Virus genome (UHGV): UHGV-0097031
Origin: a virus
Direction: 5' to 3' (one strand)
Length of the DNA: 10,543 bases
The notes under the pieces: generated by a model
What the model saw: the letters and a program-made list of their open reading frames with translations, nothing else
The model's database searches: none
What the model was told of the DNA's origin: nothing
Position numbers and translations under genes: made by a program
Shown here: positions 1,132 through 9,042 of the stretch, one piece after another
How positions within the stretch are numbered: the stretch's first letter is position 1
Layout of the letters: every line of letters begins with the position of its first letter

Positions 1132-1150
1132 TGTTAGATGAATGGAATTA

Positions 1151-1164
1151 ATTTTCTAATATAA
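1151..1164 (+). promoter_or_regulatory. Candidate repressor operator (ATTTTCTAATATAA) upstream of the packaging operon; a weaker inverted half-site lies at 1132-1142
   Basis: Member of a recurring TTTCTAA[C/T]A motif family also seen at 5563-5580, 5644-5658 (minus) and 6972-6987, all in intergenic positions before operons. From memory, the CTAATA core resembles the P1 C1 operator consensus ATTGCTCTAATAAATTT. Confidence 0.3.
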
Positions 1165-1239
1165 CCAACTTTTTGCCAGTCTATACAGAAATAACATTCT
1201 CATTATCATCCCCTCGGTCATTTCCTGCCTGGGGGATTA

Positions 1240-1632: not shown

Positions 1633-2993
1633 GTCTGGTTAATTGGGAGGAGCACCGCGCCCGCTTTATAGCGTTGCGTGAAGAAAAAGGGATCACTGTA
1701 AAGGAATACTGTGAGGAGCATGGCCTTAGCTTCAATACAGCCAGAAAGCATCTCAATATGAAAAAAAATGAGGTGCGGTCGCAGGTAAAGACAACAAAAA
1801 AAAGCACCAAATCACCTGAAAAAAAACGGGCGGGAAGAGCAACAAAAAAGCTGGAAGAGGGTGCAGAAAAAACAAAATTTACAGAAATTGACAATTCGCA
1901 GGGTGCAGGTTCTTTCCGAAGTATGCCAAGAAAGAAAACTTCGGATCATGAAAGTAATGCCAATAATAACAATGAGATAAAAGAATCTGTCAGGAGATCA
2001 TTGCGCGAAAAAATGGCGAAAATGATCCCCGAAGAAGATAAAAGCGCCCCAAAAATTGAGGGATCTTCAGCAATGATCCCTGGCGGTGCTGTGCAGCGTG
2101 CCACATTGCCCACTACGAATGTGGCTCGCGATATGATGAAGAACGGCGCAGAAGAACACCTGCGGTTAGCAATTCAAATGGCGCAAGAGCGCGCACTTCA
2201 GTATCAAAGCATTGTTGATCAGGAGGCCGAACGTCTACAGGCGGAAATAGACGCCTTGGGCGATAAAGAGCCAGAAGGAATGCACCCTGGGCAGCGCCTT
2301 CTCGGTCTAATCAGTGACGCGGCCTACTACATGAATGATTTTATCAGTAGGTTGGCAGCTATATATCAGTCCGAACAAAAGCTGCGACAGGGGGATGAAA
2401 AGCTTCGTCAGAGCGCTCGCCAGCAAGCATTCAAAGAGGCTGAGGCCAGAGAAAAACTCGAATTAGCACGCCTACAGGCCGAACAGCGTGGCAAAGAGAT
2501 TGAATATCGCATTGGCGCTGACGCACGCGCAGCCAGAGTTATCGCCGCCGCTATACGTATGCGTGAGCGCGAGGAACTGGATGATATCGGTGTTGCTGAA
2601 TACATCGAGCGCCAGGGGGTCAGCGTCCCGGCTATCCTCGCGGCGCGCGCGGCGAAAGCTATCACTCTTCTCGAACCACCTGTTTCTGACGTCAATGATG
2701 TTGATGATGAACAGCTGGACAAAGAGGCAAGGGAGTTTGCAACGCTTCAGGCTAACCATCCGCAATGGCTGGCAGAGCGCCGGGCGGATGTGGCAACCAT
2801 TGTTGAAGAATTGGGGTGCGGAGATTACGACCGCAATGGCGAGCGTAAAGCTGGAGAATTCGAGGCCAACGACGAAGAGCTGGATATTGACCCTTCGGCA
2901 ACGGCTGAAATTTACGGTGATTATGATGCATCTGATGCAGGGTATGACGCCGGAGATGATGATATCGCGATAGAACCGCCGGAGGATGATTAA
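1629..2993 (+). CDS. pacA: Terminase small subunit, PacA-like
   Basis: 454-aa ORF directly before and overlapping the large terminase gene (TAATG at 2991-2995). N-terminus (WEEHRARFIALREEKGITVKEYCEEHGLSFNTARKHL) looks like the HTH of small terminase subunits; Lys-rich linker, coiled-coil-like middle and strongly acidic C-terminal tail. Confidence 0.65.
   Translation: MSLVNWEEHRARFIALREEKGITVKEYCEEHGLSFNTARKHLNMKKNEVRSQVKTTKKSTKSPEKKRAGRATKKLEEGAEKTKFTEIDNSQGAGSFRSMPRKKTSDHESNANNNNEIKESVRRSLREKMAKMIPEEDKSAPKIEGSSAMIPGGAVQRATLPTTNVARDMMKNGAEEHLRLAIQMAQERALQYQSIVDQEAERLQAEIDALGDKEPEGMHPGQRLLGLISDAAYYMNDFISRLAAIYQSEQKLRQGDEKLRQSARQQAFKEAEAREKLELARLQAEQRGKEIEYRIGADARAARVIAAAIRMREREELDDIGVAEYIERQGVSVPAILAARAAKAITLLEPPVSDVNDVDDEQLDKEAREFATLQANHPQWLAERRADVATIVEELGCGDYDRNGERKAGEFEANDEELDIDPSATAEIYGDYDASDAGYDAGDDDIAIEPPEDD
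1943..2079. other. Candidate pac (packaging initiation) site: cluster of GATC-containing hexamers inside pacA
   Basis: Five GATC hexamers in 137 bp: GGATCA (1943-1948) and AGATCA (1995-2000) on the left, TGATCC (2023-2028), GGATCT (2061-2066) and TGATCC (2074-2079) on the right, arranged roughly as mirror images; AATGATCCC occurs twice (2021-2029, 2072-2080). P1 pac lies inside pacA and is built from Dam-methylatable TGATCA/G hexamers flanking the cut site (from memory). Confidence 0.3.
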
Positions 2994-4480
2994 TGGCTGG
3001 AGGGCGCAAGATTAAATGCGTCACCAGCGATCCACGCTGGCGCGATATGGTAATCAAATACCGCTACAACTTTACCCAGGCTGTTGTCGATATTTTTGGG
3101 ATGTTCCCCTCCCACCAGCAGCAGCAGATCATTCAGTCCGTGCAGGAAACGGGGAGTAGGACGACCGTCACGTCCGGACACGGAACGGGGAAGTCGTCCC
3201 TTACCGCGATGTTGCTGTTGATTTTCATGATCCTGTTCCCCGATGCCCGTGTCATCATTGTTGCTAACAAGATAGGCCAGGTAAAAACAGGCGTATTCAA
3301 ATACGTTAAACAGTATTGGGCGAATGTAGTTAAGCGTCATGGGTGGTTGCAGACCTATTTTGTCCTCTCTGACACCATGTTTTATGAGCGCTCCCGTAAG
3401 GGGATTTGGGAAGTTCTCTGCAAAGGTTATCGACTCGGCAACGAAGAAGCGCTGGCGGGTGAACACGCGGCACATTTGCTTCTAATTCTGGATGAAGCAT
3501 CTGGTATATCTGATAAGGCGATCGGCGTAATGACCGGTGCTCTTACTGAAGAAGATAACCGGATGTTGATGCTATCCCAGCCAACAAGGCCAAGTGGTTA
3601 TTTCTACGATTCGCACCATTCTCAAGCAAAAACCCCAGACAACCCGAAAGGGATCTGGACAGCAATTGTTCTTAACTCGGAAGAATCACCGTTCGTCACA
3701 CCACAATTCATCAAGCAGAAGCTTCTGGAATATGGCGGGCGCGATTCTATTGAGTACATGGTCAAGGTGCTTGGTCAGTTCCCACGAGAAATTAACGGCT
3801 ATTTGCTTGGTCGTGATGAATGCGATCGCGCTGCTCGCCGCAAGGTGTTGTTGGAGAAAAACTGGGGATGGGTGGCAACGGCTGACGTTGGTAATGGGCG
3901 AGATAAGTCGGTCCTCAACATCTGCAAGGTATCTGGTCACAGGGATAAGCGGCGCGTTGTTAACTTTAAGGTAATGGAGATGCCTGGCACTATGGACCCA
4001 TTGGCCTTTGCTGACTTCATATATAACGAATGTACGCCGGAAAAATACCCGAATATAACAATCGCGGTTGATGCTGATGGTTTTGGTTCTGATACGTGTG
4101 CGCAGTTGGTGCGTCGTGGTGCGAACCCGGTACGTATTCGGTGGGGAAAACCCATGTTTGCGAACAAAGACAGGGAGCGATTTGTTAATCAGCGTGCCTA
4201 CGCAAATATTATGGCGCGAGATGCCATAAAGTCAGGGCGTATGCGGATAGACAGTGACCCTAAAACGGCAGAGCAAGCGTCAAAAATCCCCTTTTTACTG
4301 AATGAAGAAGGGAAAATGGCGATGATGCGCAAAGAGCACATGCGGCAAAAGCTAAACATCAAATCGCCTGACCGATGGGATACCTACTGCTTCACTATGC
4401 TGGTGGACTATGTGCCTGCTAATGAAGATATTGGTGCCGAAATGGCAACTTTCCGAGATCAGGTTCTGGTGGATATATAA
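2993..4480 (+). CDS. pacB: Terminase large subunit, PacB-like (ATPase plus nuclease)
   Basis: 495-aa ORF; GGAGGA (2981-2986) 6 nt before ATG. P-loop TSGHGTGKSS, Walker B LLLILDEASGI, Asp-rich C-terminal half (e.g. VDADGFGSD) consistent with the terminase nuclease domain; size and position match P1 PacB (from memory). Confidence 0.85.
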   Translation: MAGGRKIKCVTSDPRWRDMVIKYRYNFTQAVVDIFGMFPSHQQQQIIQSVQETGSRTTVTSGHGTGKSSLTAMLLLIFMILFPDARVIIVANKIGQVKTGVFKYVKQYWANVVKRHGWLQTYFVLSDTMFYERSRKGIWEVLCKGYRLGNEEALAGEHAAHLLLILDEASGISDKAIGVMTGALTEEDNRMLMLSQPTRPSGYFYDSHHSQAKTPDNPKGIWTAIVLNSEESPFVTPQFIKQKLLEYGGRDSIEYMVKVLGQFPREINGYLLGRDECDRAARRKVLLEKNWGWVATADVGNGRDKSVLNICKVSGHRDKRRVVNFKVMEMPGTMDPLAFADFIYNECTPEKYPNITIAVDADGFGSDTCAQLVRRGANPVRIRWGKPMFANKDRERFVNQRAYANIMARDAIKSGRMRIDSDPKTAEQASKIPFLLNEEGKMAMMRKEHMRQKLNIKSPDRWDTYCFTMLVDYVPANEDIGAEMATFRDQVLVDI

Positions 4481-4481
4481 A

Positions 4482-4498
4482 GCCCCGCGATGCGGGGC
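4482..4498. terminator. Bidirectional intrinsic terminator between convergent pacB and the 4508-5545 gene
   Basis: Perfect hairpin GCCCCGC-GAT-GCGGGGC starting 2 nt after the pacB stop (4478-4480) and 9 nt before the minus-strand gene's stop (4508-4510); the minus strand has a T-rich run (TTTATATAT) after the stem, the plus strand only a weak one. Confidence 0.6.
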
Positions 4499-4507
4499 CG
4501 GTTGTGA

Positions 4508-5545
4508 TTACCAGAGCTTCGCGGCGTACTGCGTTTGGGGGAATGTGTATCCGTAACGTTCTTCGATTGCTTTGCCGTATTTTTTACGAGCTTCATTCAG
4601 TTTTATGCCGGTCAGGTCGTCTCCAGAGGCCATCATTACGTCTAACAATTCCAGATCCATTTTATCCAGCCTTGCCATTGCTTCACGTGATGTACGTATC
4701 TTACGCTCAATGATATGGCGAATAGCCGGATCGGCATCCTCCAGCATCTTAGCGGATTTCTGCTTAAGGCTTTCATTGCGAATATCGATGTTCCTTAAGA
4801 TGTACGACTTCGCAACGTAGCTTGGCTGGTGTTTTTCCAGGTCACGAACACGATATAAGTTAAAATCGCCGAGAAGGCTGCAAGGTACCGATTCGACGCC
4901 AGAATAAATTGTAATGCTCCGGCGCTCACCAACATTATTGACAACGGGGATCGTTGTCTTCGGTAGTCTTGCGAAAACCAATGCGCCATGTGCGCCAACT
5001 CTAAAGCGAGAAAGGGCATTGCTGCCTTCGATGTTTGTTGTCAGCACAACATCTGTATATGCCTCTTTACGCGCCCGGTAGATCTCGCCTTCAGGCTCAG
5101 CTTCAAAGAAGCGCTGTTCTTCTTCAAGAGCACCTACGATTTGAGAAAAAACCCTATTTTTCAGGCTTTTCTTTATGATTTTGTCGTATTTTTTGAGCAA
5201 TTGTTCACGTGTAAATGTACGTGTTGTTGTAGCGCTTTGCACAACAACATGCGTGCTTTGATTGGTGTCCTCAATGATGAATGGGATCGGAGAATATACA
5301 GACTCAACAATGTTCGACGCTTTGCCGTCGGCATCGCGGCACATGTCAACGAAGGCTTTCCATTCAGCAAGACATTTTTCAGCTTCTTCTAATATGTTTT
5401 GGTCATGCGTTAATGCAACATGGCGGAATTCCTCGCCAGCATAACTGGTATCATGGAAAACAGAGTTTGCGACCACCAGCTCTTTCCACCGTTCAGCGGT
5501 TTGCAGGAACCGTTTGTACTCTTTCTCGATCGACTTCTTACTCAT
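4508..5545 (-). CDS. Hypothetical 345-aa protein in the immunity-region position (between pacB and lox-cre); candidate immunity repressor or accessory gene
   Basis: Longest ORF in this interval; AGGA 5 nt upstream of its ATG (minus strand); own AT-rich upstream region with paired operator-like inverted repeats; convergent with pacB and divergent from cre, as in the P1 immC region. I could not recognise any conserved domain by eye. Confidence 0.7.
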   Translation of the reverse strand: MSKKSIEKEYKRFLQTAERWKELVVANSVFHDTSYAGEEFRHVALTHDQNILEEAEKCLAEWKAFVDMCRDADGKASNIVESVYSPIPFIIEDTNQSTHVVVQSATTTRTFTREQLLKKYDKIIKKSLKNRVFSQIVGALEEEQRFFEAEPEGEIYRARKEAYTDVVLTTNIEGSNALSRFRVGAHGALVFARLPKTTIPVVNNVGERRSITIYSGVESVPCSLLGDFNLYRVRDLEKHQPSYVAKSYILRNIDIRNESLKQKSAKMLEDADPAIRHIIERKIRTSREAMARLDKMDLELLDVMMASGDDLTGIKLNEARKKYGKAIEERYGYTFPQTQYAAKLW

Positions 5546-5562
5546 TATTCCTACTCGATTTA

Positions 5563-5662
5563 GTTTTCTAACATAAAATTACTATGACAAATTTATGTCG
5601 AATAACAGAGTGAGTAAAGGATCGAACTGTGATTTTTTGTCATCAATTTTAGAAAACCAACT
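5563..5662. repeat. Pair of ~28-30 bp imperfect inverted repeats (candidate operators) in the promoter region of the 4508-5545 gene
   Basis: Left arm (plus, 5563-5591) GTTTTCTAACATAAAATTACTATGACAAA; right arm read on the minus strand (5636-5658) GGTTTTCTAAAATTGATGACAAA. Blocks GTTTTCTAA, AAAATT and ATGACAAA are identical, with two small indels; the arms flank a ~44-bp centre. Confidence 0.45.
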
Positions 5663-5754
5663 GTATAAACCACGCTTCGCAAATTAAAGACCATGAAGGC
5701 AACGTGTTACTGGTCAGAATCAATCTGTGATGGATTAAAAAAAATCGCCATTTT

Positions 5755-5788
5755 ATAACTTTAAATAATTGGCATTATTTAAAGTTAG
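5755..5788. other. lox-like recombination site (13-bp inverted arms, 8-bp spacer)
   Basis: ATAACTTTAAATA - ATTGGCAT - TATTTAAAGTTAG; the arms are inverted repeats of each other at 12 of 13 positions, and the outer ATAACTT is identical to the outer 7 bp of the loxP arms (loxP: ATAACTTCGTATA). Lies 152 bp upstream of the Cre-family gene. Confidence 0.65.
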
Positions 5789-5796
5789 GCTATAAT
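5769..5796 (+). promoter_or_regulatory. Candidate sigma70 promoter reading toward cre, overlapping the lox spacer and right arm
   Basis: -35 TTGGCA (5769-5774), 16-bp spacer, -10 TATAAT (5791-5796); a TGATCA Dam-type hexamer at 5807-5812 lies just downstream. Confidence 0.4.
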
Positions 5797-5939: not shown

Positions 5940-6968
5940 ATGAGTGAATTAATTATCTCTGGCAGCTCCGGTGGTTTTCTGCGCAACATTGGCAAAGAGT
6001 ACCAGGAGGCCGCAGAAAACTTTATGCGGTTCATGAATGACCAGGGGGCTTACGCGCCGAATACTTTGCGCGATCTCCGGTTAGTGTTTCACTCCTGGGC
6101 GAGATGGTGTCACGCTCGCCAGCTCGCCTGGTTCCCGATCTCACCAGAGATGGCCCGCGAGTATTTTCTTCAGCTGCATGATGCTGATCTGGCTTCGACC
6201 ACCATTGATAAGCACTACGCCATGCTTAACATGCTGCTTTCGCATTGTGGCCTTCCGCCACTTTCGGATGATAAAAGTGTTTCTCTGGCTATGCGGCGCA
6301 TCCGGCGTGAAGCGGCAACTGAAAAAGGCGAACGAACAGGCCAGGCTATACCGCTGCGGTGGGACGATCTGAAACTGCTCGACGTCCTGTTGTCCAGGTC
6401 AGAACGGCTGGTGGACCTGCGCAACCGGGCTTTTCTCTTTGTTGCATACAATACGCTGATGCGTATGTCGGAAATCTCGCGTATTCGTGTAGGAGATCTG
6501 GATCAAACAGGTGACACTGTCACGCTACATATTTCACACACGAAGACAATAACGACCGCCGCCGGGCTTGATAAGGTGCTTTCCCGTCGCACTACCGCTG
6601 TGCTGAATGACTGGCTGGATGTTTCCGGGCTTCGCGAACATCCTGACGCAGTGCTGTTCCCGCCGATACACCGTAGCAATAAGGCCAGGATCACGACAAC
6701 GCCCCTTACTGCACCTGCAATGGAGAAAATATTCAGCGACGCCTGGGTGTTGCTGAATAAAAGAGATGCTACGCCAAACAAAGGAAGATACCGGACGTGG
6801 ACCGGGCATAGTGCACGCGTCGGGGCCGCTATTGATATGGCTGAAAAGCAGGTGTCTATGGTGGAGATCATGCAGGAAGGAACCTGGAAGAAACCGGAAA
6901 CACTTATGCGGTATCTTCGCCGTGGCGGCGTGTCTGTGGGGGCTAATAGCCGCCTGATGGATTCGTAA
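5940..6968 (+). CDS. cre: Cre-family tyrosine site-specific recombinase
   Basis: 342-aa ORF that aligns by eye along its whole length with P1 Cre (343 aa): SWARWC / SWAAWC, WFP, LNML, SVSLAMRRIRRE / AVSLVMRRIRKE, AYNTLMRMSEISRIRV / AYNTLLRIAEIARIRV, HTKT / RTKT, WTGHSARVGAAIDMA / WSGHSARVGAARDMA, EIMQEGTW / EIMQAGGW, MRYLR / MNYIR. All catalytic positions (Arg, Lys, His-x-x-Arg, Trp, Tyr) are conserved. Confidence 0.9.
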   Translation: MSELIISGSSGGFLRNIGKEYQEAAENFMRFMNDQGAYAPNTLRDLRLVFHSWARWCHARQLAWFPISPEMAREYFLQLHDADLASTTIDKHYAMLNMLLSHCGLPPLSDDKSVSLAMRRIRREAATEKGERTGQAIPLRWDDLKLLDVLLSRSERLVDLRNRAFLFVAYNTLMRMSEISRIRVGDLDQTGDTVTLHISHTKTITTAAGLDKVLSRRTTAVLNDWLDVSGLREHPDAVLFPPIHRSNKARITTTPLTAPAMEKIFSDAWVLLNKRDATPNKGRYRTWTGHSARVGAAIDMAEKQVSMVEIMQEGTWKKPETLMRYLRRGGVSVGANSRLMDS

Positions 6969-6971
6969 ATT

Positions 6972-6987
6972 AAATTTCTAACACATC
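6972..6987 (+). promoter_or_regulatory. Candidate operator (AAATTTCTAACACATC) between cre and the downstream accessory operon
   Basis: Same TTTCTAACA core as the motifs at 1151-1164 and 5563-5580; followed by a short inverted TTAGA (6991-6995); sits 4 nt after the cre stop and ~55 nt before the TTG start at 7042. Confidence 0.3.
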
Positions 6988-7041
6988 TTTTTAGATTAAC
7001 GCCTTTGCTGTAAAGTACCCTCGCCTATTTAGGAGGGTGCT

Positions 7042-7386
7042 TTGCAGAGTCAAATCACGGAATCAAGACGCTTCAAGGTGGATGGTTACACCGTAACCTT
7101 CGCCGCTGGTGTTAAGAACAGTCATGCTGTCGTTGTGTTCGGCATCATGACCGGGCTTGAGGCCGTCCCTGTGTTTACCCTCGAAAAAAACTGGCGAAAT
7201 CTGGAGGAAGCAGAAAGCTACGTCCGGAAAGTAACCATCATTGCCGCCGAAAAACTCCTGGCCCACTATCAGGAAAATTATCGCACTATGGTCGAGAAGA
7301 TTAATCTCGCTTTCACTCGCCCCACTACCGGCTTTATTGCACCGGATACTAATGCCGGTCGATATCCTGCAAGGGGGCGTCGGTGA
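7042..7386 (+). CDS. Hypothetical protein (TTG start)
   Basis: 114-aa ORF starting at TTG 7042, preceded by a strong AGGAGG (7031-7036) at 5-nt spacing; the first in-frame ATG would remove ~35 residues. No recognisable motifs. Confidence 0.5.
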   Translation: MQSQITESRRFKVDGYTVTFAAGVKNSHAVVVFGIMTGLEAVPVFTLEKNWRNLEEAESYVRKVTIIAAEKLLAHYQENYRTMVEKINLAFTRPTTGFIAPDTNAGRYPARGRR

Positions 7387-7859
7387 AAACTTATTACCCA
7401 TCTCTGAATTGTTACCCGTCTTCCTATCCAGAATTATCCGGGAAGCTGTTAGCTCTATTAGCTAAAGCACCTACGGAATGGTTTAAGCCAGTCGTTATCA
7501 ATCCACACTTCCTGGGTTACGGATCTGTTCGCACTCGTAACGAACTCAAAAACCTACTGGCGCATGGATTCATTCGACACCGTGCCGGGAAAGGCTATCA
7601 GTTAGCGATTGCGCCAGAAGAGGCCGTGCGGCTATTCGCATATCGTGACAGCCAGACAAAAACTCGGGTAATAGCTCAAATACTTCATAACGGCAGCACC
7701 TATGCCCGCCAGTTTGGCGGCGACACGTCGCAGTTCTTGCGGGCGGTGCGATCGCTGGAGGAGCAAGGAGTTATTGAAAGTTCCTGTCTTCCTGTTCCTA
7801 CCGTTCCACATATCAAACGTCGGGTTTACACCTTCACGCAGAGAGCTAAAAAACAATGA
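7383..7859 (+). CDS. Hypothetical protein, possibly winged-helix DNA-binding (GTG start)
   Basis: 158-aa ORF; GTG start overlaps the upstream stop (GTGA, 7383-7386) with AAGGGGG 5 nt upstream. The segment LRAVRSLEEQGVIES...KRRVYTFTQRA resembles the recognition-helix/wing pattern of winged-helix regulators (weak, by eye). Confidence 0.5.
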   Translation: MKTYYPSLNCYPSSYPELSGKLLALLAKAPTEWFKPVVINPHFLGYGSVRTRNELKNLLAHGFIRHRAGKGYQLAIAPEEAVRLFAYRDSQTKTRVIAQILHNGSTYARQFGGDTSQFLRAVRSLEEQGVIESSCLPVPTVPHIKRRVYTFTQRAKKQ

Positions 7860-8350
7860 TTTACGTAAAAGTGAAACGCCTACATCCGGCAGCAAAACTT
7901 CCAGCTTATGCCACCTCCGGATCGGCGGCGATGGATTTTGAGGCTGTTGAAATAAAACCATGCGTCGATAGCAATGGTGCAATTTCCTCAAGCTGGTGGG
8001 TGTATACCGGACTGGCTATGGAGATCCCGCCCGGCTGGTGTCTGAAACTCTATCCGCGATCAGGATTGGGCTGCAAAAAACATACTCGCCTGGCTAACTG
8101 CGTAGGAATTATCGACTCCGATTATCGCGGCGAAATCATGGCAAAACTGATTACTGATCCCGGCGGGGAAGGCGTTTGTCTCAAGCCTGGAATGGCTGTC
8201 ATGCAAGGAATTTTTGAGCGTGTTGAACAAGTCTCACTAGTCGAGGTTGAGGAACTCAACGAAACGGAGCGTGGTGCTGGTGGCTTTGGTAGCACATCGG
8301 AAGGCCACTTTGAAATTAAGCGTTCACCGCTTCAGTACGAAAAGTTATAA
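7856..8350 (+). CDS. dut: dUTP diphosphatase (trimeric dUTPase family)
   Basis: 164-aa ORF with the conserved dUTPase motifs in order: YATSGSAAMDF (motif I, variant of AGxDL), PRSGLG (II), GIIDSDYRGEI (III), AVMQGIF (IV), ERGAGGFGSTS (V). Alignable by eye with E. coli Dut; ~16-aa C-terminal extension. Start overlaps upstream stop (ATGA, 7856-7859). Confidence 0.9.
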   Translation: MIYVKVKRLHPAAKLPAYATSGSAAMDFEAVEIKPCVDSNGAISSSWWVYTGLAMEIPPGWCLKLYPRSGLGCKKHTRLANCVGIIDSDYRGEIMAKLITDPGGEGVCLKPGMAVMQGIFERVEQVSLVEVEELNETERGAGGFGSTSEGHFEIKRSPLQYEKL

Positions 8351-8364
8351 GCAGAGAAAAGACT

Positions 8365-9042
8365 ATGAATAACAAGGCAACGAAAGAGCTTTTTAAGCTC
8401 CTTCCCAAATACAAAGCTCACAAAAACGTTAGTGCATCGAAAATCAAAAATGTTGTTATTTTCGGAGTAACTGATACCCCACTTTGGGGCAGCATCGAAC
8501 TCGTTGAACCTAAAGGGGCAACAGTTTGTGTTGACGCAATGTTTTTACAAAAACACCGACCAAAAACTGGCGGGTATCTGATCGTTTATGAAAACGGTTA
8601 TCTGTTCTATGCCCCGGAGAAACCATTTGAGGAACGCTATGGCCTGGTTAACGACGCCTCCAAAAATGGAACCACGGTCATCATTACGGATGACAACGGC
8701 GCGATGATTAATCTTACCGGGAGCGTAACTATTTCTGCTGGTGGCATCACCACCCAGCAAGAAGAAATCGACCTTGAAGCAGCCGACTTTTCTGACGCGC
8801 TGATGTGGCTGAAGGATGGCAAGAAAGTTGCTCGACGCGGGTGGAACGGCGAAAACCAATTCTGCTGGCTGGTTCCTGAAGGACAGTACCCGGCACGAAT
8901 GGAAGCCATTAAGGGATATTTTCCCGGCGACCTCGTTCCGTATGGTGCTTATTTCGCCTTAAAAAATGCACAAGGTGTAGTTGTTCCGTGGGTGCCTTCA
9001 GTTGGCGACCTGCTGGCCTGTGACTGGTTTGTTGTGGAGTGA
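8365..9042 (+). CDS. Two-part protein: unknown N-terminal region (~140 aa) fused to a C-terminal DUF2829 (Tad2-family) domain
   Basis: 225-aa ORF. C-terminal ~85 aa (DFSDALMWLKDGKKVARRGWNGENQFCWLVPEG...PYGAYFALKNAQGVVVPWVPSVGDLLACDWFVVE) matches the DUF2829 pattern I recall (F-x-x-A-L-x-x-L-K-x-G-K-K-V-x-R-x-G-W-N-G ... P-W-x-x-S-x-x-D-L-L-A-x-D-W). N-terminal part unrecognised. Confidence 0.7.
   Translation: MNNKATKELFKLLPKYKAHKNVSASKIKNVVIFGVTDTPLWGSIELVEPKGATVCVDAMFLQKHRPKTGGYLIVYENGYLFYAPEKPFEERYGLVNDASKNGTTVIITDDNGAMINLTGSVTISAGGITTQQEEIDLEAADFSDALMWLKDGKKVARRGWNGENQFCWLVPEGQYPARMEAIKGYFPGDLVPYGAYFALKNAQGVVVPWVPSVGDLLACDWFVVE

Follow-up and report, generated by a model that had tools for sequence, protein, structure and literature searches.

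A well-described counterpart of the locus reported here is the immunity region of phage P1, whose repressor C1 binds 22 dispersed, asymmetric operators of 17 bp (consensus ATTGCTCTAATAAATTT), controls RepL and Lpa, and has both an antirepressor, Coi, and a corepressor, Lxc (PMC8546580). In the P1 annotation, c1, coi, imcB, and imcA are situated between pacB and lox on the strand opposite to pacB, just as a first-pass annotation of our sequence, made from its letters alone, had stated. That sequence is a stretch of 10,543 nucleotides of the virus genome UHGV-0097031 (hereafter the window), and its equivalent interval holds a gene for a protein of 345 residues (4508–5545, minus strand), for which the first-pass annotation proposed either a C1-type repressor that has diverged strongly, within an immunity region reduced in content, or a cargo gene at a variable position. 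Our results support the former, based on significant BLASTP similarity to P1 C1, a protein family shared with it, a profile that retrieves the P1 C1 cluster, conserved gene order, and a dispersed motif resembling that of P1. We consider the gene to be, very probably, c1, encoding the repressor that acts as master regulator of lysogeny and immunity in a D6-like phage-plasmid of the P1 family.

Open reading frame (ORF) calling confirmed that the gene is real, begins with ATG, and is convergent with pacB, as had been described. The label "unrecognised" that it had been given was wrong, as a megablast search with the region found Escherichia phage D6 (97.5% DNA identity) and the protein is identical in 345 of 345 residues to the D6 c1 product (AAV84948.1 / ASR76322.1). 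The GenBank annotation of the gene as c1 or prophage repressor dates from AY753669 (Sauer and McDermott 2004), which has "c1 phage repressor protein"; in the complete D6 genome, MF356679, locus D6_1 is named "prophage repressor, similar to P1 gene C1." Within c1 there are four nucleotide differences from D6, all in third positions and all synonymous, as expected under purifying selection. The 117 nucleotides upstream of c1 are also identical to D6, while about 19 substitutions fall in the remaining, distal part of the spacer between c1 and the recombinase gene dre.

The identity of the protein to D6 c1, together with its relatives in a plasmid collection, led us to conclude that the window derives from a D6-like phage-plasmid (plasmid prophage), and the four synonymous changes, the spacer substitutions, and a 21-nucleotide difference in the length of the D6-matched region indicate that it is not the D6 isolate itself. 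In agreement with that length difference, pacB has 495 codons here and 502 in D6 (1509 nucleotides). A relative of the c1 protein is encoded in 149 records of the plasmid collection, 74 of which have a protein at least 99% identical, with many annotated as "phage repressor protein." These plasmids are mostly non-mobilizable, from E. coli or Salmonella, and roughly 90 kb in size. As a finding, the gene is therefore ordinary: it is the already known c1 repressor of a common phage-plasmid family of E. coli and Salmonella.

The relationship to P1 C1 (283 residues) is distant and was detected by several routes. By BLASTP the two proteins are 21% identical over residues 7–240 (E = 2e-8), and P1 C1 had no match in the D6 genome at any locus other than c1. 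Both proteins match PHROG 1678 over their full length, the c1 protein at 2.8e-170 and P1 C1 at 2.6e-140, the latter covering positions 1–280 of the 347-position profile. The best NCBIfam match of the c1 protein was phage_rep_C1 (NF041318, the P1 C1 equivalog model), at 25.4 bits and E = 8.9e-6, a score far below the equivalog cut-off of 500 bits, which by the NCBI criterion makes the protein a family relative and not an equivalog. A word-indexed protein search reached only close relatives of the D6 type, and it required an exhaustive search with a D6-type profile over 1.84 billion representative proteins to reach the P1 type. In that search only 83 cluster representatives matched, including P0082 (4.6e-6), a short-form cluster 53% identical to P1 C1. 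The Pfam family PF27008.1 is precomputed on all close relatives of the c1 protein. Neither the gene nor the region around it had a match in local Pfam, PADLOC, or Rfam searches.

The matched proteins have one of two architectures, a long form of ~345–364 residues that matches the whole profile and a short form of ~250–285 residues that matches positions ~5–245 only. The common core corresponds to codons 1–232 of the gene (4850–5545, minus strand) and the remainder, codons 233–345 (4511–4849, minus strand), to a C-terminal extension of a predicted helical hairpin (residues 233–270 and 276–307) followed by three short helices. This region of ~110 residues is conserved within the D6-type clade, absent from the ~250–285-residue members, and had no Pfam domain match. 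On these sequence comparisons, a core of ~240 residues defines the C1 family and the C-terminal region is an addition of the D6-type clade. The full-length homology to P1 C1 that the first-pass annotation named as the mark of an ordinary repressor is consequently present in part, being significant over residues 7–240 and not extending into the D6-type-specific C-terminus. We also considered that the extension might be a fused Lxc and rejected this, as it does not resemble that corepressor of P1.

Gene order around c1 is conserved in distant relatives. In the window c1 converges on pacB, the large terminase gene (2993–4480, plus strand), and on its other flank a spacer of 394 bp separates it from a Cre-like tyrosine recombinase gene (5940–6968, plus strand), which encodes Dre. 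Phage D6 has the same neighbors (lpa, pacA, pacB, c1, rox, dre, and dut), and the P1 c1 gene agrees with that of the window in orientation and in its place between pacB and the recombination site (lox or rox). Elements whose C1 proteins are 70, 42, 30, and 29% identical to that of the window also retain the order pacB, c1, cre-like recombinase. This order is retained in an element with a 68% identical C1 as well, the Salmonella Typhi plasmid pK91, but there the pacB side is interrupted by IS26. The position of homologs between the terminase and a cre-type recombinase, suggested earlier as a test, held in all five of these further elements, with c1 convergent on pacB.

This synteny bears directly on the other reading, in which the gene would have no connection to immunity and would be cargo (for example, for defence or superinfection exclusion) inserted at a variable position between terminase and recombinase. 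Consistent with cargo are the lack of a match for the protein in our local copy of Pfam, the label of PHROG 1678, "unknown function," and the identity to P1 C1 of just 21%. The slot is not variable, however, because the gene occupies it in every related element examined, down to 29% identity, and three routes (BLASTP, PHROG 1678, and the D6-type profile) each give significant homology to P1 C1. In addition, no family in PADLOC-DB matched the protein at E ≤ 1, and operator-like sites are present directly upstream of the gene and at positions equivalent to those of P1. We regard cargo as extremely improbable and c1 as the identity of the gene.

In pK91 the C1-like gene and the recombinase gene are retained whereas pacB is truncated by IS26, beyond which are qnrS1 and Tn3-family elements. 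The plasmid resembles a D6-like prophage in decay, one that has resistance genes and has kept the gene for its repressor.

The paired operator-like repeats that had been noted upstream of c1 are an inverted pair (arms at 5560–5574 and 5646–5660, 87% complementary), and they are more than a chance resemblance, since the same motif is found repeatedly in the D6 genome. This D6-type motif is asymmetric, TTRRTTTTCTAACAYA, with the weight-matrix consensus naTTAnTTTTCTAACAcA; the bit scores given below for sites of the window are from a weight matrix built from D6 sites. The promoter-proximal candidate operator, ATTTAGTTTTCTAACATAAAAT, is located at 5558–5579 on the plus strand, antisense to c1 and 13–34 nucleotides upstream of its ATG. 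It scores 28.8 bits, matches the core exactly, and is conserved in the elements with 70, 68, and 42% identical C1 proteins. Its inverted partner, the distal candidate TTGGTTTTCTAAAAT (5641–5662, minus strand), scores 11.9 bits, and its core, TTTTCTAA, is found at the same place in the same three types. An inner inverted repeat (ATGACAAA at 5636–5643 and TTTGTCAT at 5584–5591) is not conserved in the 70, 68, and 42% types and was set aside as due to chance or specific to one type.

Between the two sites is a candidate c1 promoter (5590–5618, minus strand), with TTTACT (5613–5618) and TAAATT (5590–5595) separated by 17 nucleotides. The hexamers and their spacing are conserved in the window and in the 70 and 68% C1-type elements; the consensus promoter scan did not call them, so this promoter is inferred only.

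Two further candidate operators are present in the window. The repeat core TTRGTTTTCTAA recurs 81–92 nucleotides upstream of lpa (1148–1159), within the site AATTAATTTTCTAATATAACCA (1146–1167, plus strand; 21.5 bits; 73–94 nucleotides before the lpa ATG), and it recurs with one mismatch at the very end of dre, where the site AATTAAATTTCTAACACATCTT (6968–6989, plus strand; 26.2 bits) is upstream of a block of genes at 7042–8350. Counterparts of the latter site are found at 89942–89963 in D6 and in the 70 and 68% C1-type elements.

The distribution of the motif over the 91-kb D6 genome is non-random. By k-mer count, TTTTCTAACA is the single most frequent 10-mer of the genome, with 10 copies, and nine of the 10 are in non-coding DNA, which makes up 10.5% of the genome. 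Among 11-mers, TTTCTAACACA ranks first (seven copies). The weight matrix found 18 sites of at least 12 bits as compared to about three in locally shuffled genomes, although these counts are partly circular, in that the matrix scores its own source sites, and only the k-mer count is unbiased. All 13 sites above 20 bits are within or abut intergenic DNA. Sites are found upstream of c1, lpa, ref, hrdC-dmt, pdcB, and pmgS, at the 3′ end of ref, after dre, and in the interval separating repL from the first icd-antirepressor module. The P1 operators (ATTGCTCTAAT...) are likewise mostly intergenic and upstream of genes, and the D6 sites at c1, lpa, ref, and the ref 3′ end match the positions of P1 Oc1 (five operators), Olpa, Oref, and Omat. 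The similarity extends to detail at lpa, as P1 Olpa is 71–87 nucleotides before the P1 lpa start, in the same orientation as the D6-type site. Two overlapping inverted site pairs in D6, at 64110–64151 (upstream of hrdC-dmt) and 80703–80744 (upstream of pdcB), recall the bivalent inverted operators of P1.

By inference from sequence, we take the motif sites to be the operators of D6-type C1. The D6 motif and the P1 operator have a TCTAA core and asymmetry in common and differ in their flanks, and the flanks also vary with the type of C1. The motif reads ATTTTCTAACGAAT in the 42% type and TTTCTAAGG in the 29% type, where it is present at c1, lpa, and other intergenic positions, and it ends in ...TCTAACGAAT and ...TCTAAGG, respectively. 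After the core, the sequence is ACAYA in D6, ACGAAT in the 42% type, AGG in the 29% type, and T(A/G/T)(A/T/G)AT in the P1 operators compared. Across the C1 family the core seems to persist and the flanks to vary from one repressor type to another, and the flank differences may represent a readable code of immunity specificity.

The alternative is that the gene is a C1 homolog but that the TTTTCTAAC motif is a promoter element or the site of some other factor, with the true D6 C1 operator being different. Three observations would fit this: the assignment of the motif to C1 comes from sequence, the motif is also found before some morphogenetic genes, and its core is unchanged between C1 types only 68–70% identical. 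Set against these are the resemblance in TCTAA core, asymmetry, and length to the experimentally defined P1 operator, the shared positions at c1, lpa, and ref, and the change of the flanks in more distant C1 types. A late-promoter element was rejected, as the motif differs from the unrelated −22 box of P1 late promoters (AAGTGACTT). Nor does the D6 type employ the P1 operator itself, whose consensus ATTGCTCTAATAAATTT had no match in the window at up to three mismatches. We judge a site for another factor to be unlikely and favor the motif as the C1 operator.

Several points weigh against the gene acting as the master repressor through these sites. To the shortfall from the equivalog cut-off and the partial circularity of the matrix counts must be added the weakness of the distal c1 site (11.9 bits) and the location of some sites before morphogenetic genes (pmgS, for example), not an obvious place for a repressor of early genes to act. 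In addition, promoter scans of the c1 region, of lpa, and after dre did not establish promoter positions, and a literature search that did not cover the primary D6 papers found no experiment on a D6-type protein.

Based on its homology to P1 C1, we propose that D6-type C1 would bind asymmetric operators of ~16–20 bp, probably as a monomer, with TTRRTTTTCTAACAYA in D6-type elements being the counterpart of ATTGCTCTAATAAATTT in P1. The candidate operators front lytic and accessory operons, namely lpa (the late-gene activator), the repL region, the two icd-antirepressor modules, ref, hrdC-dmt, pdcB, pmgS, and the block after dre. Bound C1 would silence these operons in the plasmid prophage and provide superinfection immunity to phages of the same immunity type. 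The two inverted sites bracketing the likely c1 promoter suggest autoregulation, possibly by looping as in P1. The ~110-residue helical extension may function in self-association or as a dock for an antirepressor, although this is speculation. If the assignment is correct, D6-type elements have a candidate operator and regulon with type-variable flanks, from which the immunity groups of these widespread plasmid prophages would be predictable.

Unlike that of P1, the immC region of the D6 type would consist of c1 alone. With P1 Coi, Lxc, ImcA, and ImcB as tblastn queries, neither the window nor the complete D6 genome gave a match below E = 0.5, such that neither the coi, imcA, and imcB of P1 immC nor lxc is detectable in the D6 type, and there is no conserved small ORF upstream of c1. 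The sole small ORF there, of 33 residues (5593–5694, minus strand), was rejected as Coi-like, since it is not conserved in relatives. Similarly, a D6-like Salmonella plasmid is reported to have a C1 homolog and two c4/icd/antirepressor regions and to lack Lxc (PMC6799933). We found no LexA box near c1, and induction probably runs through the antirepressor modules, which are located outside the window. In biological role, the maintenance of lysogeny and immunity, C1 is comparable to repressors of the lambda CI and LexA type; unlike these, it has no detected helix-turn-helix or S24 domain and its fold is unrelated. The "C1-type repressor" of PMC10090143 belongs to the helix-turn-helix proteins and is unrelated to C1.

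Sequence searches detected no solved structure for D6 or P1 C1, and we predicted the fold of the c1 protein with AlphaFold2 from an alignment of 63 sequences. The resulting model is confident (predicted local distance difference test score, pLDDT, 94.7; predicted template modeling score, pTM, 0.79). In it, an N-terminal helix precedes a beta-rich central body into which two helical pairs are inserted, and a long helical hairpin (residues 233–307) and three short helices follow. This agrees with the description of the protein from its letters as helical at both ends and beta-rich in the middle, with helices at 3–26 and 233–342 and strands at 28–46, 89–112, and 155–204. The conserved basic residues of the core (R41, R157, R159, and R182) are all on beta-strands. 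The sole significant solved structural neighbor of the D6-type and P1-type models was E. coli Tus, albeit with template modeling scores (TM-scores) of only 0.38–0.46. For the P1-type member P0082 (pLDDT 90.8) the matches to Tus had E-values of 1.3e-8 to 9e-8 as compared to 9e-3 for the next match, and the model ends in a low-confidence tail where the D6 type has its helical C-terminal region.

At the sequence level the evidence for a connection to Tus is weak but agrees with the models. The fold of Tus (PF05472; PDB 1ecr, 4xr0–4xr2) is recovered in the C1 models, but membership of its family by sequence is not: in a Pfam scan of 24,736 families the c1 protein had no match, to PF05472 or otherwise. 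Among the 63 C1-family members two matched it weakly (best E = 0.012), which makes it the top family by member count, a position it holds with two other families that also had two. A local Tus profile gave weak matches to several C1 members in one register (Tus 149–248 against C1 ~81–180). A profile–profile comparison by hhalign was not significant (~8% probability), and the stretch it aligned (C1 86–196 against Tus 146–268) overlaps and is collinear with that register.

The arrangement of the binding sites offers a second point of comparison. Tus binds its asymmetric site as a monomer and controls its own expression from a Ter site located in the tus promoter (PMC10331603). In E. coli the TerB site upstream of tus (record positions 2227–2249) ends 11 nucleotides before the tus ATG and on the coding strand reads TATGTT-G-TAACTAAA, and the c1-proximal operator (5558–5579), which reads TATGTTAGAAAACTAAA, ends ~13 nucleotides before the c1 ATG. 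In the same orientation the two are alike at 14 of 15 positions with two one-nucleotide gaps, a likeness that is no more than suggestive (P = 0.067 with shuffled TerB and P = 0.005 with random 22-mers of D6 as background).

From the models we consider a Tus-like alpha/beta fold of the core to be likely for the C1 family, and common ancestry of the family with Tus to be plausible. The fuller statement, that the whole P1/D6 C1 family has the Tus fold and is probably a remote Tus homolog, we hold at even chances. Our literature search found no paper linking Tus with a C1 repressor, and the predicted fold is the only part of this work that may surprise a specialist. It provides a structural hypothesis for P1 C1, long studied and structurally uncharacterized, and a possible evolutionary source of Tus. 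Were it true, a beta-sheet inserted in the major groove as in Tus–Ter would explain how a monomeric repressor lacking a helix-turn-helix reads an operator that is long and asymmetric. A shared origin of the Tus–Ter fork trap of enterobacteria and the C1–operator immunity of phage-plasmids would be suggested as well. This accords with a published proposal in which a plasmid system was the source of the domesticated Tus, and the operator next to c1 resembles TerB next to tus.

The similarity to Tus raises the question of whether the main role of C1 is itself Tus-like. In that case C1 bound to DNA would form a polar barrier and so control how the plasmid prophage replicates, and repression of transcription would be a secondary role. 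Such a role would accord with Tus being the sole significant structural neighbor, with the promoter-proximal operator resembling TerB and being placed and oriented toward c1 as TerB is toward tus, and with the autoregulation of Tus through a Ter site in its promoter (PMC10331603). Yet the homolog P1 C1 is an established transcriptional repressor (PMC8546580), the sites are in the promoter regions of many operons and do not flank a terminus, and the operator–Ter similarity is only marginally significant (P = 0.005 to 0.07). Tus arrests replication forks and C1 represses transcription, and Tus is without the C-terminal extension of the D6 type. We find a primarily Tus-like role very unlikely and retain transcriptional repression as the probable function of C1.

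The remaining features of the window surround the c1 interval. Between the convergent pacB and c1 is a G+C-rich, terminator-like hairpin (4481–4499) with an 8-bp stem of which seven pairs are G–C. On the other side the regulatory interval of c1 is bounded by the target of the Dre recombinase (5756–5787), which bears the name rox in AY753669 and forms a perfect 14-4-14 inverted repeat. The best sigma-70-like match of the region, TTGGCA-16-TATAAT (11 of 12 positions; 5769–5796), begins inside the rox spacer and is directed to dre, and recombination at rox would part it from, or join it to, other upstream DNA.

Further neighbors are lpa (PF25716, E = 1.4e-56), pacA, a dUTPase gene, and genes for two proteins with a C-terminal Tad2-like domain (Thoeris anti-defence 2, PF11195 / DUF2829), at 164–739 (E = 1.1e-9) and 8365–9042 (E = 1.9e-22). 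The RefSeq name of the product of 164–739 in related plasmids is "MW1434 family type I TA system toxin"; it is possible that these are anti-defence genes flanking the immC region. Finally, the Chi sequence GCTGGTGG is present 12 times in the 10.5-kb window as compared to 0.32 expected, nine of the 12 on the plus strand (positions include 1002, 1569, 4399, 5473 on the minus strand, 6407, and 7992), and the commonest 9-mers in D6 and related plasmids are Chi-containing words.

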